From the IMG/VR virus record IMGVR_UViG_3300040985_001649, positions 1-34,726 of that record: DNA of 34,726 nucleotides. One strand, given 5' to 3'. The DNA comes from a virus (taxonomy: Duplodnaviria; Caudoviricetes). The translations under genes were made by a program, and so were the position numbers. Numbering within the stretch: position 1 is the first letter of the stretch; every line of letters begins with the position of its first letter. Below are positions 59 to 8,057 of this stretch, one piece after another. Below the pieces are notes generated by a model. It did not search any database and was not told the origin of the DNA. It worked only from the letters and a program-made list of their open reading frames with translations.

Positions 59-182
59 ACCCCATGGGGGGGGAGGGGGGCAACAAGCGCGCATGCTGCC
101 CTGTGCTGCTGCGCCCTGTCCCACGTGTGAACCGGTAGGGGCCTGCCTCTCAGCCCAGCCAGGGAGGCCACCAGGACGCCCC

Positions 183-222
183 CTACTACTAGTGATTGAT
201 GCCTTGTCTAGTCTAGTAGTAG
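183..222. repeat. Perfect 10-bp inverted repeat with AT-richer 20-bp spacer
   Basis: CTACTACTAG (183-192) ... CTAGTAGTAG (213-222). Confidence 0.85.
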
Positions 223-230
223 AGGCCCCT

Positions 231-273
231 TGATCCACCCTGAACCACCTGTGATCCACCTGTGATCCACCTC
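231..273 (+). repeat. Four tandem 10-11 bp iteron-like repeats
   Basis: TGATCCACCC, TGAACCACCTG, TGATCCACCTG, TGATCCACCTC back to back. Confidence 0.85.
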
Positions 274-364
274 GGTACCAGTCCACAATGCCCACCACTA
301 CTGCACCCTGCCCCTCTACCCCTGTCCTGAACCACTACACCGGAGCCCTACACGGAACCACCCT

Positions 365-421
365 CACACACCAGTGGGACATTCTGCCCCACATGTGGGC
401 CATATGACCCACGGGTGTGTG
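365..421. repeat. 57-bp imperfect palindrome/hairpin
   Basis: Arm CACACACCAGTGGGACAT (365-382) matches the reverse complement of 404-421 at 16/18; perfect inner palindrome CCCACATGTGGG (388-399). Confidence 0.85.
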
Positions 422-555
422 TGTGGAGATTCTACCTATGGGGCACCGGTTCACCTCTACCGGTTCACGTCGCCCGACTCCCGGCACCTGCTGCCCCACA
501 ACGCAGGAACGGCGGGCCTTATCAGCCCGCCGCGTCTTGACGTGTCACCGGTTCC

Positions 556-599
556 GAGGTGGTGCAGAGGTGGTGTACCGGTGGTACCGGGTGGTTCCA
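556..599 (-). repeat. Four ~11-bp GGTGG repeats, inverted relative to the 231-273 array
   Basis: GAGGTGGTGCA, GAGGTGGTGTA, CCGGTGGTACC, GGGTGGTTCCA; the reverse complement of TGATCCACCTC is GAGGTGGATCA. Confidence 0.7.
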
Positions 600-770
600 C
601 TCGCTCGCCGTCTTTGCCGCCCACCACTACGTTATCGCGCCGCGCACCGGCTGGCAAGCACCAGCGCCCCACACCACCCCCTCAGGCCGTGCGGGGCGCC
701 CCCCTCAGGGATGGGCTGGCGGCCTCTTGCGTGAGCGCCGGCCCATGGTGATGCCGCGTGGTGCAGCAGG

Positions 771-1025
771 TCAGGTCGGGCCGCTTATCGGCCCGATGCC
801 GTACCTGTGCGGGTTCAGCCCCCGCGGCCCCACGCGCTTGCCTGGCGCCAGCTTGACCACCAGCCCGTCGGCCACCATCGAGGCCACTGCGTTGCGCATC
901 GTGGTCTCCCCCCACGGAAGGTCAGAGCAAAGGCGAGGCAAGGTCTGCGGCCCGTGGTGCTTGATCCGGCGCAGGATTGCGCCAGCAGCGACCTGCACGG
1001 CCGTGCGCTTCGGCTTGTCGCTCAA
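771..1025 (-). CDS. Small winged-helix DNA-binding protein (putative)
   Basis: AILRRIKHHGPQTLPRLCSDLPWGETTMRNAVASMVADGLVVK...HRYGI fits a wHTH pattern. TTG start at 1025 overlaps the upstream stop; the ORF track extends it to 1127. Confidence 0.6.
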   Translation of the reverse strand: MSDKPKRTAVQVAAGAILRRIKHHGPQTLPRLCSDLPWGETTMRNAVASMVADGLVVKLAPGKRVGPRGLNPHRYGIGPISGPT

Positions 1026-1614: not shown

Positions 1615-3689
1615 GTGCCCGCGCCCACCTCGTCCGTCAGTAGGACGATCATGCGCATGCGGCGGCCCCGCTTGAGCGCCGGCTGCCCGTCGGTTGGGCG
1701 GGGCACCAGGATACGGTGCCTGCCCTTCTCGGTCTTAATCCACCCGCGCTGTGCCCATTCTCGGATGATCGAGTCTGGAGTGCCGAAGCCGCGGGCGGTC
1801 AACTCGGCGAACAGCAATTCGGGAATGAATGCGATCTCCCCGTCCTTCTCCCACACGCCGAGCCAGCTCTGGCTCGGGCCGCGCGCTGACCTGCCGACGA
1901 ATCGGTGCGCCTGCGCCCATGCCCACGATTCGGCATACTCAGCCGCCCGCCTGGCCCGGTCATCGGCGCCGCCAACGAGCTGGATCTGCTGCCAGAGCCA
2001 TGCTGGCACGTCGCACTTCGGCTCTTTGACCTCACAGAATCCGTGCACGATCTGGGCGGCGGTGTCGATTACGGCCATGTAGTCGGCAAGGGACCTCACC
2101 ACGCTGTTGCCGAGGCCCTTCCACAGCTCGGCCCGGCGTGCCCGGTACCAGTCGCGCAGCTCCAGCCGCCGCTCGTCCGTCATGTCCACCAGGGCCTGCA
2201 CAGCCCGCGGGTACAGGTGCCCATAGTGCTCAGAGAGCACGGCGCGGATGTTGGTGGAGTCCTCAGCGGTGCGGACGCCAACGTGGCGCAGTTCGAGGAT
2301 GCGGCGGCGCACCCCGTCGTGCGGGCTCCACGCCGTGATCCCCTCCTCAGAGGTGGACAGCAGCACGGTTCGCCAGGAGTCCACGTGCGACATGCCCAGC
2401 CGGCCCAGGGCGCCCTTTGCCCTGCCTGCCCCGCTGATGATGGCGTAGAGCAGCGCGCCTGCCTCCTGGTGGCGGCTGGGCGCTACCAGTTGCCCCTCGT
2501 CCAGACACGTCACCATGTCGCACCGGACGCCCACGCCCGATTCGGTGCCAGCAAGCGAGCCATCCCAGCCAGCCATCACGGCGCCCTTTGCCGGCTTGCC
2601 CAGCGTCGAGGCGGCCAGCTCGAGCACGGTGCTCTTGCCTGATCCGCTCTGGCCTGCGAAGTCGATCCCGAAGTTGGGTGCGCCGAGGATGCGCAGCAGC
2701 GGTGCGGCGACGGCGGCGTAGATGGCCACCCACGGCGCCGGCTGGTCGCTGATGATGTCCAGGGCCACCTGCCACCCCTCCCACGTGCCCTCAGGCCGCA
2801 CAGCGTCGGCAAACTGATCGGCGCCCGCGCTCTGCGTCGCAAAGCTGACCCGGTGAGCCGGCTCCTCGCCCTCATAGATGCAGGTCTTGCCCAGCAGGTA
2901 GAAGCGGGCGGTCTCACCCACCCACCCACAGCGGGCCGCGCTCCAATCCGAGGGCATGCCCGGCTGCTGGTCGAGGCAGGTCAGCCACTCGACCACCCTC
3001 CGCGACGTCGCCGAGCTCACCGGCAGGCCCTGGTCGGCCAGGCGGACGAGGGCGCGGGAGTCCAGGGCGGTGGAGCGCGGCACGATGGCCGTCTGCCACC
3101 TGCGGCCGTTCCACCACGCCAACTCCACGGAATAGGTCTCGTCGTCGGCGTCGCGCAACTTGCGGGTGATGAGCACGGGCAGGCCCACGGCTTCGCTGGC
3201 GGTGCCCTGCGGTGTGTTCTTGGTCCGCGACAGTTGGGTGGGCCCGAGGTGCCACGGCGCGGGCACCACGACCCCTGCCGGGTACTCTGGCCAGTCCACG
3301 GCGGCGCGCACTTCGAGCTCTTCGCCCTCACCGACCAGCCGAAGCGCCTTTTTGACGTCATCGCGCCGGGCCTGCGCCAACCGGGTGCGCAGTTGGTCGC
3401 TCATCCTAGTGGTGAGCACGCCAGCCAACCGCATCAGCTCGGCCTCGATCTCTGCCCCCCGGTCGATGCTGGACAGCATCACGGCACGGAACCGCGGCGG
3501 GTCTTGGTAGAGGTCTACCAGGGGCTTGGTGCGCTGGGCGCTGGGGGCGTCCTCCTCGATGGTGGCGATGGCGTCAACCACGGCGGCGAGTGTTCGCACC
3601 CCATCGGGCCTGCTCACCACTTCGCCTAGGTCGGACAGGGCGTCAGCCCCGTACAGCTTCATCACTTCGTCTGCATCACGGACGGCCAT
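1611..3689 (-). CDS. DUF927-domain replicative helicase (primase-associated AAA+ ATPase)
   Basis: DUF927-like LADQGLPV...CGWV segment, Walker A GQSGSGKST, Walker B CLDE, GxGR and LLSTSE motifs. ATG at 3689 overlaps the primase stop (TGATG); the track start is 3716. Confidence 0.85.
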   Translation of the reverse strand: MAVRDADEVMKLYGADALSDLGEVVSRPDGVRTLAAVVDAIATIEEDAPSAQRTKPLVDLYQDPPRFRAVMLSSIDRGAEIEAELMRLAGVLTTRMSDQLRTRLAQARRDDVKKALRLVGEGEELEVRAAVDWPEYPAGVVVPAPWHLGPTQLSRTKNTPQGTASEAVGLPVLITRKLRDADDETYSVELAWWNGRRWQTAIVPRSTALDSRALVRLADQGLPVSSATSRRVVEWLTCLDQQPGMPSDWSAARCGWVGETARFYLLGKTCIYEGEEPAHRVSFATQSAGADQFADAVRPEGTWEGWQVALDIISDQPAPWVAIYAAVAAPLLRILGAPNFGIDFAGQSGSGKSTVLELAASTLGKPAKGAVMAGWDGSLAGTESGVGVRCDMVTCLDEGQLVAPSRHQEAGALLYAIISGAGRAKGALGRLGMSHVDSWRTVLLSTSEEGITAWSPHDGVRRRILELRHVGVRTAEDSTNIRAVLSEHYGHLYPRAVQALVDMTDERRLELRDWYRARRAELWKGLGNSVVRSLADYMAVIDTAAQIVHGFCEVKEPKCDVPAWLWQQIQLVGGADDRARRAAEYAESWAWAQAHRFVGRSARGPSQSWLGVWEKDGEIAFIPELLFAELTARGFGTPDSIIREWAQRGWIKTEKGRHRILVPRPTDGQPALKRGRRMRMIVLLTDEVGAGT

Positions 3690-4636
3690 CAGGCTCTCCA
3701 GCGGGAAATTGTGCATCTGTCGTCGAGCGTCCTGGCCACCTGCTCAGCGTACCGCTCGCCTGCCTTGTCGGCGTCTGTGGCGAGCACGACCCGGGCCCCG
3801 TCAGGCACCCGGTCGGCGTGTTGTGGCGTCCACCATCCCGACCCGATCCCAATGACCGCGGCGCCCGGCTTGGCGGCGCTCCATGCCAGGAAGGCCGGCT
3901 CGCCCTCGGTGATGATGACCACTCTCGGGCGCTGCTTGCCCTGCAGCATCAGCACGGCGTCGCGGTTGGCCAGGACGAGGCCCGCGCCGGCGCAGCCAGT
4001 GGGGCCCACAGCCTTGGGCCCATCGCCGGGTCGGATGCGCCGAGCTCGCCACCCGCGGTGATGGCCCATCGCATCCCACGTCGGAAAGAGAGCGCGCAGG
4101 CCCTGGTCGTACCAGCCCCGGCCGCGGAGCCGCATCCAGCCGAAGCGGGCCGAGGGGCACAGCGCGCGCACCAGGCCGACAGCTCGCGGCGACGGGTCAG
4201 GGCCCAGCCGGTCAGCGAGCCAGAGCATCACGGCGCGGTCTCGATGGGCGGGCATCGTCCTGGCCACGCTGTCGTCGATCTCGTTGCGCGGCACCATCAG
4301 CAGCGGCGGGGCTTCGGGCATGGCGGCAGCGCTGGCGGTGGTGTTGCCCCATCCGTTCCACTCGCGGACCACCTTCTGGCCGTTGTAGCGGTCGCCAGCG
4401 AGGCAGAACGCGACGGCGTCGATTGCGTCGCCCCACTCTTCGCACGACCAGCACCGCCACCGGCCCGACCTTGTGACGGTTGCGGGCAGCCGCTTGTCGC
4501 CATCACCACGTCGCTGGGCCTTGCACGCTGGGCAGACCAGAGAGGTGCGGCGCCCCATTCGGACAGCCAATCCCAGAGCGGCGGCCACCTGGTGGATGGG
4601 TGTCTGGCGGGCCTCTTCGAGCCATGAGGTGGTCAC
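3689..4636 (-). CDS. DNA primase (N-terminal zinc finger + TOPRIM)
   Basis: CPAC...WRCWSC...GDAID zinc-binding domain; TOPRIM IITEGE and LATDADKAG motifs; directly upstream of the DUF927 helicase. Confidence 0.85.
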
Positions 4637-6492
4637 GAAGCACCGCCAAAGAGGTCGGCCTGCTCACCGCCGATCAGGGCCTTGTCGCGCATCGCGTCGA
4701 TCTTGATCGCCCTCTCGCACACAAGCCGGGCTCGGGCGTCGGGCTCAAAGTTGCACGTTACCCACTCGCTCTGCTGCTTGCTAAACGTGCGCTTTTGGCC
4801 CACCCGCATCGCCGTAATCTCGACCGCGTGCCAGCCGTCCGCCATCAGTTCGGGGATGGGCTCGGCCTCGGACACCATGCACCGGGCGCCAGCGTCGGAC
4901 CATCGGCGGATAGTCGCGACCTGCTCATTCCGTGCGAAGACGTTGGCATATCCGGTGGTGTTTTCGTAGGGGCCATCCATGTAGACGAGCACATCGCGCA
5001 GGTTTACGTGGCCCCCACCGTATGGTATGGTGGCACTACAACAAAGGAGCCCCCCATGGAATGGCGAACCATCGCAGAAGCCCCCGAGTACCGCGTCAGC
5101 AGCGCCGGAGAGATCCGGTCCACCTACACGAATCGGCCATTGACTGGAGGGCGAGACAAAGACGGATACCGGAGGCTCGTTCTCTGCACAGCCGGCGGCC
5201 GAATCCACCGACGATTCAGCGCCCTTGTCTGCGCGGCGTTCCACGGAGCCCGGCCCGTCGGGGCAGTTGTGCGCCATCTTGACGGCACCAGAGACAATGA
5301 CAGGGCCGACAACCTCGCATGGGGCACCCAAGCCGAGAACATCGCAGACAAGGCCCTGCACGGCACCGACCAGAGGGGAGAGCGCCATCCGCGCGCGAAG
5401 GTCACCGAGGACGACGTGCGGGCCATCCGCGCCAGCATTGAGCCCCTTCGTGTTCTCGCTGACCGGTACGGGGTGGCGCCTTGCAGTATCAGCGCAATCC
5501 GGCACCGGCGCAACTGGGCTCACGTCGAGTAGCCCCAACACGCCCCACGGGTCGAGCGTGCGGGCGTCGTCGTGGATGGTGGAGGGGAGGCCGCGCGGGT
5601 CGCGCTCCGTGGCCGTGGCCGTGGCCGTGGCCGTGGTGTCTTGTCTGCGCTCGCCCGGCCCGACAAAACCGGTGCGCACGTTGCCTTGTTCATACGACCA
5701 GACCGCGCGCTGAATCCACCGCCCAACCTCCCGCGCATCCACCGGCGGGCACACCGCGGGCCCCTCCGCCCGCAACCGTTCCCACAACGCCCGCGGGTCT
5801 TCGTCTGCCCAGGACCGGATGATGGCCGCCGCCTCTCTGGCCAACTTCGCATCCCGGTAGGCGTGCAACAGCAGGCGCGCCCCATCGTCCGGCTCGCAAA
5901 AAATGTACCGCTCTGCCTTGTCGCCCGGCTGGAGCCCAGCCAGCGCCAGAATCACGTCAGCGTAGCCGGATTTGCTGCCCATCCGTGAGACGGGCGGTCG
6001 TGCTTTGGCCCGCTCAAGTCGCAAAGACAGGGCAGCGGTGCCGGCGCACAGTTCGACCAGGAGCGGGATGGCGCACTGGCGGGGCGGTGGTGTCGTGGTG
6101 AGTAGGTCGGGCATGGTTTCGCTATCCGGATGTATTGGTGGACACGCCCATCGATCGCGCATTGTGTCGTCCCCAACGAGAACGCGAGAGATCCCGCGGG
6201 GGCTGGCGTTACACTTGCTACTGATCCCCTTTGGGGCAGGCATGAACCGATCAGCGGCGGGGCCTTTATTGCCTGCCACAAACAGCCACCGCGCCACCTC
6301 TCGCGCATCGACACCCATCGCCATCTCCTCGAATGCGTCGGCCAGTTTGCCGATCGGTGTGCAGAACTCAGCCCCGCCGAATGTGGAGCCGCCCGCGCCC
6401 GTGTTGCGCCATGTCCGCGAGTCCAGGCTAATCAGCCGGTTGGCGGTCACGATGCGCGCCCATCTGGCCACTTCTCGCGGGCCGACCCTCAT
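4633..6492 (-). CDS. Dam/D12-like N6-adenine DNA methyltransferase with extra TRD-like segments and a ~180-aa antisense-HNH-derived insert
   Basis: [10 protein letters not shown] (SAM-binding motif I), [14 protein letters not shown] (motif X-like), IFCEPD (motif II), VLVYMDGPY (DPPY-like motif IV), MVSE, EWVTCNF C-terminal motif; ATGA overlaps with both neighbours. Confidence 0.8.
5003..5049 (+). promoter_or_regulatory. Sigma70-like promoter and RBS of the nested HNH gene
   Basis: TTTACG (5003-5008), 17 bp spacer, TATGGT (5026-5031) with extended -10 TG; AAAGGAG ahead of the ATG at 5056. Confidence 0.7.
5056..5532 (+). CDS. NUMOD4-HNH homing endonuclease with C-terminal HTH
   Basis: MEWRTI...[11 protein letters not shown]...GYRRLVL (NUMOD4); [23 protein letters not shown] (HNH); [18 protein letters not shown]...LADRYGV..SISAIR..NW (HTH); strong RBS. 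Confidence 0.92.
5607..5636. repeat. (CCGTGG)5 in-frame hexamer tandem repeat
   Basis: Five perfect copies; encodes the TATATATAT stretch of the methyltransferase. Confidence 0.95.
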
Positions 6493-8057
6493 GCCGTCTT
6501 CTTCTTGAGGCGGTCAATGCGCCGGCCCAGCTTGTGCACAGACTTGCACGCAGCTTCACCGGGCACGTCGCCGCCCACCCGAAGCGCGCCAGGGTCCCAC
6601 TGCAGGCGCCACGGCTCGGACTGGCCCAACCGTCCAGCCTCGACTCGGGCCCACCTCGACCCGCCGTAGAGCACGTCGAGCAGGTCTGCCACCTGGCCAC
6701 GGGTCAGCACCCACGGCACCTTCGATAGGGCCTTGATTGGGTCGCGGCACTCGCCCGGTATGTGCCGGGTCAGCTTCGACGCGCCCTTGACCGCTGCGAC
6801 TTGTTTGGCAGAGACCGGCGCGAGTTGCCAGCCACCAGGGGCCACCGTCCGCGGTGGGCAGATCCCGGCCCGCTCCAGCTCAGCCCGGGCGCGGCGCAGG
6901 TACGCCAGCAGCACGTCGAGTGCCAGCGCTTCGTCCTCGCGCGGCTCCGTCGGCCCACGTGCGGCGGTGGGCTCTGCGGCCTCGGCCTCGGCAGCCTCCT
7001 CCATGGCCTGCCCGATGGCTTCCGGTGTCGTCCACCCAAACCGGCCCAGGAGCAGGTGAGGGTCGAGCACCACCCCGTCGGTCTTCGTTCCCCATTGCGG
7101 GTCAGGTTCACGGTCGACCCGCAGCACCCGGCCGACTTCCTGAAGGAAGCGCACAGACGCCTGCACATTTCGCCTCAGGCAGAGCCACCGGAGCCAGGGC
7201 AGGTCGACACCCTCAGAGAGCAGAGCCACGTGCACGATGGCGCGCAGTTGGCCGGTGCGTAGCCTCTCCAGCCGTGCGTCCTGCTCGGTCGTCGTCAGCC
7301 TGCTGTGGACGGCCTCAGCGGGCCAACCGTTGGCGGTGAGCCATTCGGCGTGCTCTTCGGCGTCGTCGATGCTGGTGGCGGACGTGATGCCGGGCCCGTC
7401 GGCGTGTTCGTTCATCATTGCCAGGCACGCCTCGTCAATCGGCACGCCGTCGCTGCCCTGCCAGCGCTCGACTCTGGGCGGCACCAGCACGCGGTCGCGC
7501 ACGGCGTCCTCGATGCCATACCGGTAGTGAACGCAGTCGAAGAGACTCACCGTCTGCGTGGGCACCGACCGAAAGGGCGTCGCGGTGAACCCGACCAGGG
7601 CGGCGGGCTTCAACTCGGGCACCGTGTCCCGCACGCTGGCGGCCTCAGACCGGTGGGCCTCGTCCACGATGAGCAGGGCCACCCGCTTGCCCAGGCTGGC
7701 AAGTTCCACGTGGAGCGTGGGCAGGGAGTTGTTGCAGCAGACGATGACGGGCCGCACTTGCTTCTTCTTGCCGTACCACCGGCCCACGCGACCCCGGCCC
7801 AGCCGCCCGGCCATCGTGTCGGCGAGCTGGTCGACCAGCCGCTGCCGGGGTGCGCAGACGATGATTACTCGGTCGCCCAGGTTGGCGTGGGCCATGCGTA
7901 CCAGTTCGGCCTGGAGTATGGACTTTCCGGCGCCCATCACCGCGCAGACGATGCCGCGGCGCTTCTTGCGCACGTTGCCGATGATGATGGGCAGGGCCTT
8001 GGCTTGCCAGTCGCGAGGGGGCCACTCTGCGCCCTGCCAGGGGATGATCTCAGCCAT
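6489..8057 (-). CDS. Superfamily 2 DEAH/ResIII-like helicase
   Basis: PRDWQ (Q motif), MGAGKS, IVDEAH, GFTATP, LSEGVDLP, QEVGRVLR. Confidence 0.93.
   Translation of the reverse strand: MAEIIPWQGAEWPPRDWQAKALPIIIGNVRKKRRGIVCAVMGAGKSILQAELVRMAHANLGDRVIIVCAPRQRLVDQLADTMAGRLGRGRVGRWYGKKKQVRPVIVCCNNSLPTLHVELASLGKRVALLIVDEAHRSEAASVRDTVPELKPAALVGFTATPFRSVPTQTVSLFDCVHYRYGIEDAVRDRVLVPPRVERWQGSDGVPIDEACLAMMNEHADGPGITSATSIDDAEEHAEWLTANGWPAEAVHSRLTTTEQDARLERLRTGQLRAIVHVALLSEGVDLPWLRWLCLRRNVQASVRFLQEVGRVLRVDREPDPQWGTKTDGVVLDPHLLLGRFGWTTPEAIGQAMEEAAEAEAAEPTAARGPTEPREDEALALDVLLAYLRRARAELERAGICPPRTVAPGGWQLAPVSAKQVAAVKGASKLTRHIPGECRDPIKALSKVPWVLTRGQVADLLDVLYGGSRWARVEAGRLGQSEPWRLQWDPGALRVGGDVPGEAACKSVHKLGRRIDRLKKKTA

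Follow-up and report, generated by a model that had tools for sequence, protein, structure and literature searches.

Genomic Context of the Locus

The window, that is, the whole analyzed stretch of DNA, is a complete virus record of 34.7 kb (approximately 68% GC), with exonuclease, helicase, primase and tape-measure-like genes on its minus strand. On the same strand, the start of a methylase open reading frame (ORF) at 6492 overlaps the stop of the helicase gene, and its end overlaps a primase-like gene (Table 1). An HNH endonuclease gene lies on the opposite strand within this ORF, its codons being in exact mirror register with the stop-free minus-strand frame 4633–6492; the remaining two minus-strand frames contain two and four stops across the HNH gene, and the TAG that ends this gene reads CTA (Leu) on the methylase side. 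An earlier reading, made from the sequence only, had placed the nuclease between a ten-residue segment ending the target-recognition domain (TRD) and catalytic motif IV, with no stop in the methylase frame. Both the placement, with the N-side segment ending at 5548, and the uninterrupted mirror frame were confirmed.

Table 1. Features of the methylase–HNH locus and of the second HNH lineage (window coordinates unless a locus is named).
Feature	Position	Strand	Comment
GTGA overlap	4633..4636	-	Methylase stop with GTG start of primase-like gene (3689-4636)
Dam-fold DNA adenine methyltransferase-like ORF	4633..6492	-	619 aa; stop-free through the antisense HNH gene
Inferred mobile cassette	4960..5547	.	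Borders: 5547 (left), within 4909–4960 (right)
Motif IV, DGPY variant	4966..4977	-	From sequence
Putative HNH promoter	5003..5033	+	From sequence; function inferred
Shine-Dalgarno-like AAAGGAG	5043..5049	+	6 nt before HNH ATG; from sequence
NUMOD4-HNH endonuclease gene, I-HmuI-like	5056..5532	+	158 aa
Variable module, opening with REVGRW	5548..5733	-	Between N-terminal core and cassette
Motif I-like ELCAG	6040..6054	-	Conserved in family alignment
N-terminal extension	6105..6492	-	Contains two more REVARW-type module starts, N-terminal to motif I
ATGA overlap	6489-6492	-	Helicase stop with upstream end of methylase ORF
Second-lineage HNH	L223 2498-3046, L224 2498-3046	-	Cys pairs at both ends

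The HNH Gene and Its Expression Signals

The HNH ORF matches the NUMOD4 (E 5.4e-6) and HNH_3 (E 3.4e-10) domains, which bears out the intact NUMOD4-HNH gene described from the sequence. The profile of its clade matches PDB 1u3e, the nearest solved structure, which we take to be I-HmuI, with E 1e-20 over residues 2–121. Uncorrected pN/pS of 0.24–0.53 among seven relatives indicates purifying selection on the nuclease, and the ORF is thus both intact and conserved, as in homing endonucleases. Close HNH proteins number at least 22 (P0123-P0144, 59–70% identical). No cultured phage with a close HNH was found, the best HNH among the matches listed being 38–41% identical.

The AAAGGAG ribosome-binding site stands as claimed, while the claim of an own –35/–10 promoter stands in part. 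By consensus the candidate is weak: the predicted –35-like TTTACG (5003–5008) and –10 TATGGT (5026–5031), separated by a 17-nt gap, score 8/12, and a consensus promoter scan lists no site at the HNH gene, the candidate falling below the threshold. Support for the putative promoter comes instead from conservation, as the extended –10 (in the window TG-G-TATGGT, 5023–5031) is kept as TG-n-TATKGT in six of the seven HNH loci. The methylase frame reads TIPYG across the same positions. A phage-wide promoter was rejected, the motif having a single exact copy in the window.

The Host Methylase Family

The window ORF has a weak PHROG match to DNA methyltransferases (E 2.5e-4) and no Pfam match over its 619 residues; the family itself misses the Pfam MethyltransfD12 cut-off (E 0.18, 11.9 bits vs 22). 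We modeled an insert-free homologue (59 sequences, pLDDT 83.7), and its best Foldseek matches are EcoDam and DpnM (E 1e-6 to 2e-5, TM 0.41–0.47), so that a class I SAM fold with a DPPY-type motif IV is found in the insert-free form. Sequence identity to EcoDam and DpnM is only 15–18%, and the family differs from them by tandem variable modules. ELCAG is presumably the SAM-binding motif I; in the window it precedes RMGxK (5950–6054, minus strand), the reverse of the Dam motif order, and a local permutation is possible.

Among 626 homologues of the methylase N-half with at least 322 residues, the best 120 were examined. Most of those listed pass straight from DARxxDP to LPxGxVxYxDPPY, and one to six REVA-like starts lie between motifs I and IV (counted in 113 of the 120 proteins). 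The variable modules are arranged in tandem, are bounded by DPREVARW and LPATIxxDAR, and are visible as DNA repeats. The position of the modules in the Dam fold points to target recognition, and on these grounds they would be target-recognition modules, the module at 5548..5733 in the window being TRD-like by position. Extra modules are added by the family right after DARxxDP, that is, at the very site of the HNH cassette. N-terminal extensions resembling that of the window are present in P0006, P0019, P0029, and P0035.

Several further observations concern the family as such. A single ORF carries its one to six tandem modules, some of the proteins having modules N-terminal to motif I as well, and identical modules are reused between distant members; possibly this is a Dam-fold enzyme that shuffles its modules or has several specificities. 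At 5607–5642 of the window a six-base repeat encodes a TATATATAT run in the variable module, its length varying among homologues. The DGPY variant of motif IV was considered as a sign of decay and rejected, since 11 of the 120 listed homologues have DGPY too. A tblastn search of the family against 50,697 GenBank phages gave no match, and neither a cultured phage with the family nor a characterized member was found. A literature search, judged from titles and abstract openings and mostly outside subscription journals, yielded no paper on it.

Filled and Empty Alleles

The sequence-only reading had called for insert-free alleles that would define the junctions. Such alleles exist in near-identical phages. 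A seawater contig joins position 4908 to position 5547 of the window, with 104 other letters replacing 638, a net difference of 534 nt or 178 codons (junction depth 4, with 46 letters on the short side). The borders also follow from two filled/empty pairs, L131/L116-L260 and L222/L010. The cassette so delimited comprises a module-start remnant, the antisense HNH gene, the promoter, its own strand preceding motif IV, and motif IV itself; it begins at the repeat that opens the variable modules of the family and carries its own recoded DPPY segment.

Downstream, filled L131 and empty L260 share 99% identity along 2.7 kb, and 54 codons from TTGY on are without change. Around DPPY, by contrast, the pair differs at 9.5 of 9.7 synonymous and at 6.5 of 26.3 non-synonymous sites of 12 codons, D, P, P, and Y being kept; as the synonymous sites differ and few non-synonymous ones do, the motif IV of the cassette is conserved as protein and not as DNA. 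Compared with 33 empty alleles, six carriers have a lower GC3 around DPPY (p 2.7e-4), a difference that may partly reflect the adjacent promoter. Between L222 and empty L010 identity stops exactly after the DPREVA codons and resumes at about ARRW. The two agree only outside that stretch, so the cassette has replaced the last module and motif IV of L010. Filled and empty alleles with co-converted flanks, as known for homing endonucleases, are thus present.

The carriers are scattered over six places of the host tree (57 rows, 103 columns, many forks open), on which the six carriers need six changes, at least five of them forced by supported branches. The branch of the window N-core is 0.14 long, compared to 0–0.03 in its tree neighbors. 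No convincing direct repeat that would represent a target-site duplication was found in 4900–6520.

Misassembly as the source of the arrangement is unlikely, as five other independently assembled loci have the same layout. An identical 403-aa part of the window protein is found on another 5.8-kb contig, possibly from the same sample. The HNH gene is not covered by any of the six sequencing runs listed (share of words 0.05–0.09), and no RNA data set was among those listed.

Relatives Sampled Irrespective of Frame

With a DNA pattern built for this HNH clade, three viral, five metagenome and no genome stretches were retrieved, representing six distinct loci. In five of these (L130, L131, L217, L221, L222) the HNH gene is antisense at the same methylase site, and the mirror frame is open in all six. 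The methylase-borne HNHs are in frame with the C-half in 5/5 cases and with the N-half in all four readable ones, L131 being cut by the contig end. Upstream of the insert, L220 (an assembly 98.9% identical to L130) shows an N-rich frame shift, which we treat as assembly noise.

A frame-blind pattern for the methylase C-terminus yielded 53 viral stretches, one of them too short to read. Four of the 53 have an internal HNH and are open on the readable side or sides (L263 is cut by the contig end), and none of the 52 readable stretches is broken before GQKRTF. Seven genome stretches with this pattern comprise five family members, insert-free where readable, and two unrelated ones. All insertions found in the methylase family are therefore antisense and in frame, the frame-blind scans giving no out-of-frame, sense-oriented or stop-containing case. 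This is the count of frames and orientations that had been proposed as a check.

At the protein level, a mirror-peptide profile searched against 1.84 billion representatives gave nine matches with E <1e-30, namely seven methylase read-throughs, four of them new (P0250-P0253), and also P0254 and P0255; such matches are biased to open frames and were left out of the statistics. Among the 150 matches listed, the proteins with the N-core all have the C-core as well. P0255 has a different N-terminus, which looks to us like the start of a beta-type methylase, followed by the mirror peptide, and ends 15 residues past the promoter codons without a catalytic motif (protein only); it is possibly a broken or truncated case. 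A mirror-peptide search among longer proteins recovered nothing but the protein of the window itself; as P0035 was missed, this search is uninformative. Three terminase large subunits (P0277, P0324, P0388) also match the mirror profile weakly (E 5e-8 to 2.5e-4), and weak intein matches in two of them suggest antisense HNH genes inside TerL inteins.

A second HNH of 182 aa, unrelated to the first (29% identity over 45 aa), is present in L223, L224, and P0095. It follows DPPY-S directly, in antisense orientation and in frame, and the TGA that ends it coincides with that Ser codon; a promoter-like motif and GGAG are present upstream. Motif IV is thus flanked in the same manner by two HNH lineages.

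Chance and the Open Mirror Frame

The sequence-only reading had cautioned that codon bias makes an open mirror frame likely by chance, and rightly so, as the signal at the single locus is near the chance level. The mirror frame is open in 163 of 494 windows of 159 codons (33%) from 23 genes of the window, as well as in 6 of the 13 HNH genes that served as controls at GC3 ≥0.70 (mostly distant HNHs from HNH-seeded locus searches of viral contigs); at one locus alone it is not significant. These frequencies are what one would expect if the open frame were a by-product, GC-rich HNHs often lacking TTA, CTA, and TCA, the methylase being dispensable and recombination giving in-frame junctions. Junctions arising from homology would indeed be in frame by construction, and such methylases can be dispensable according to section 4.1 of PMC11855218.

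Comparison between loci argues against the by-product explanation. The mirror frame is open in all seven class A and both class B HNH genes. TTA, CTA, and TCA are absent in 7/7 clade genes compared to 6/13 GC-matched controls (Fisher p 0.044, unchanged with the window gene left out), and at the codon level the ratio is 0/87 in the clade to 11/184 in the controls (p 0.019); other A-ending four-fold codons are used alike (69/513 vs 129/933, p 0.87). With a wider and less fair control (GC3 of at least 0.60), 7 of 27 genes are open (p 0.0006). The pS values among the seven clade genes are 0.58–0.68, so that with synonymous sites near saturation these genes are not near-copies, and the lack of stop-mirroring codons has been kept at that divergence.

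The spacing of the 5′ region points the same way. The distance from the –10 box to the conserved HNH Trp codon is 30, 30, 15, 24, 33, 30, and 27 nt in the seven loci, that is, five lengths, each a multiple of three, in DNA that is non-coding on the HNH strand. At least three length changes are needed among the methylase carriers, and their preserving the frame by chance would have a probability of about 1 in 27 (the –10 anchor is the second of two tandem hexamers, set by eye in four loci). Other junction distances also differ by whole codons, which homologous recombination could yield. Samples are small and p-values modest, so the evidence for a frame kept open is consistent and modest in size, and we consider it improbable that the open frame is merely a by-product.

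Removal, Splitting or Read-Through of the Insert

No intron was matched in Rfam at E up to 5 in 3500–7500 of the window, or at E up to 1 in five related loci, and the insert extends beyond the HNH ORF by no more than about 15 nt at one end and 50–80 nt at the other. A group I or II intron was rejected, as there is no Rfam match and the flanks are too short for a ribozyme core. An intein was rejected as well, since the 619-aa ORF has no Pfam match, the termini are not conserved and the mirror peptide has pN/pS of at least 1.0; the range of 1.0–1.9 indicates no amino-acid constraint on this peptide. The absence of splicing signals claimed earlier is thereby borne out.

The insert could still be removed or skipped by an unrecognized route, such as RNA processing or ribosomal bypass, or a C-half made from an internal start could complement in trans. 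Homing genes that split host genes have precedents, as in split nrdA or T4 gene 60 (discussed in PMC2988022), and in-frame GTG codons are present in the mirror frame. The lack of intron matches, the short flanks and the lack of conserved intein-like termini speak against such routes, as do an N-half that is not ended by a stop and junction RNA that folds no better than shuffled sequences (z –1.37). We regard removal or splitting as having little chance of being correct.

Two further checks suggested from the sequence agree with translation through the insert. The methylase halves of the carriers have profile scores within the range of empty alleles, and so by this measure show no pseudogene decay. 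In structure prediction the insert blocks are modeled as disordered, with pLDDT of about 23–34 in a poor model (12 sequences, mean pLDDT 46 for the window protein).

Proposed Mechanism and the Operon-Coupling Alternative

We consider it rather probable, judging from comparative data, that the insert is a splicing-free antisense HNH homing cassette, with the methylase translated through it as a disordered linker of about 180 residues. The homing element without splicing proposed by the sequence-only reading is in this sense supported by the empty alleles, the frames, the state of the methylase halves, the predicted disorder and the missing intron. The simple looped-out insert of that reading stands only as to the linker, which is predicted to be read through; the cassette does not merely interrupt the enzyme, as it replaces a variable module and motif IV.

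The nuclease would be made from its own antisense transcript, starting at the predicted promoter, and would nick empty alleles within the motif IV codons or close to them. The module-start repeat at one end and the conserved C-terminal half at the other would then serve in repair, and the last variable module together with motif IV would give way to the recoded and presumably immune version carried by the cassette. Ribosomes translating the methylase mRNA would pass through the HNH region to give full-length methylase with a disordered linker, which may be tolerated since this site of the family already accommodates additional modules. Counting against the homing cassette are the base rate of open mirror frames, P0255 and the longer branch of the window N-core; convergent transcription would also oppose the operon.

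The strongest rival accepts homing, and holds that the mirror frame is open mainly for translational coupling of the helicase–methylase–primase operon: an open frame would avoid polarity, and the insert-bearing methylase may be weak or dead. The four-base overlaps that join the window ORF to its two neighbors agree with coupling. So does L218, where an HNH of the same clade (175–775, minus strand) lies outside any methylase and its mirror ORF is nevertheless stop-free, bridging two genes by GTGA overlaps: its GTG start overlaps the upstream TGA, and its TGA end overlaps the next GTG. P0254 is a non-methylase ORF resembling that of L218, with a similar ending. As these frames are open outside a methylase, an open frame can be explained without methylase function. 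On the other hand, the cassette-borne motif IV is kept at the protein level under saturated synonymous change, and in L131, L222, and L223 the methylase stop has no overlapping start codon. On balance, operon coupling as the main cause seems unlikely to us.

A more speculative reading appears doubtful to us. The nuclease would pose as an interchangeable specificity module and spread by module shuffling, with the stop-free mirror frame serving as a ribosome bridge in coupled operons. It would have entered between the module-start and module-end repeats, the promoter arising from the antisense of module-end codons (PATI to ATIPYG), and as a neutral bridge it could then settle in any phage operon with translational coupling, as in L218. 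If so, antisense read-through would be a general third harmless route, besides introns and inteins.

Relation to Known Homing Systems

An HNH hidden within a methylase is real here, and as a concept it has already been published for the same strand. In ShiLan, an HNH lies in another frame inside mycobacteriophage DNA methylases whose host frame is stop-free (PMC11855218); no intron or intein is involved, the insert is predicted to loop out, and in the absence of an RBS leaderless initiation was proposed (section 4.3 of the same paper). The spread of the ShiLan insertion over the host tree is described as patchy in PMC9957025. ShiLan and the window thus share an HNH in a phage methylase in a frame other than that of the host gene, a stop-free host frame, the lack of intron or intein features, a predicted looped-out peptide and a patchy distribution on the host-gene tree, the activity being putative in both. 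They differ in that the ShiLan HNH is on the same strand, on the host transcript and without an RBS, whereas the window HNH occupies the opposite strand and has its own RBS and predicted promoter. Compared by description, the modular Dam-fold host and the replaced module and motif IV are further distinctions of the window. The lack of tblastn matches of the host family in the GenBank phage set argues against homology to the ShiLan methylase. The main text of PMC11855218 contains the words “antisense,” “reverse,” and “promoter” zero times, and its supplements might list opposite-strand cases. From the sequence features, the window cassette is best described as a putative self-promoted, opposite-strand variant of the published ShiLan hidden HNH.

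I-HmuI (PDB 1u3e) and its kin have the NUMOD4-HNH architecture in common with the window HNH. As summarized in PMC2988022, enzymes of this type ride in group I introns of Bacillus phages and nick one strand; they are intron-borne, and the window HNH has no intron. Intronless homing is described in the same source for the T4-like free-standing homing endonucleases, such as mobE in Aeh1 nrdA and mobA in T4 gene 60. These and the window cassette are mobile without intron or intein and are sited in functionally critical parts of host genes. According to that account, the T4-like enzymes split the host gene and cut far away, whereas the window ORF is continuous and its target is presumed adjacent. 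A search of titles and abstract openings, mostly outside subscription journals, gave no paper on an antisense, self-promoted HNH that is read through by its host gene.

Homing genes have been thought to be harmless in host genes through splicing out or gene splitting. The ShiLan paper (2025) proposed plain read-through and left nuclease expression open; an opposite-strand HNH with a predicted promoter and an RBS would answer the expression question for this variant. Exact borders can be read from the natural filled/empty pairs, which also point to the motif IV codons as a candidate target, so that homing and the tolerance of the enzyme can be tested directly. Such elements are probably undercounted, as antisense nucleases are invisible to annotation: the protein collection contains the 619-aa read-through product and not the window HNH sequence.

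Other Observations

Positions 1–58 of the window, at the start of the record, look like sequencing-adapter sequence, presumably left untrimmed. In L044 a distant free-standing HNH (1761–2153, minus strand) lies directly upstream of a methylase of the same family, on the same strand, an arrangement like the Sashimi/Tiff81 case described in PMC11855218.
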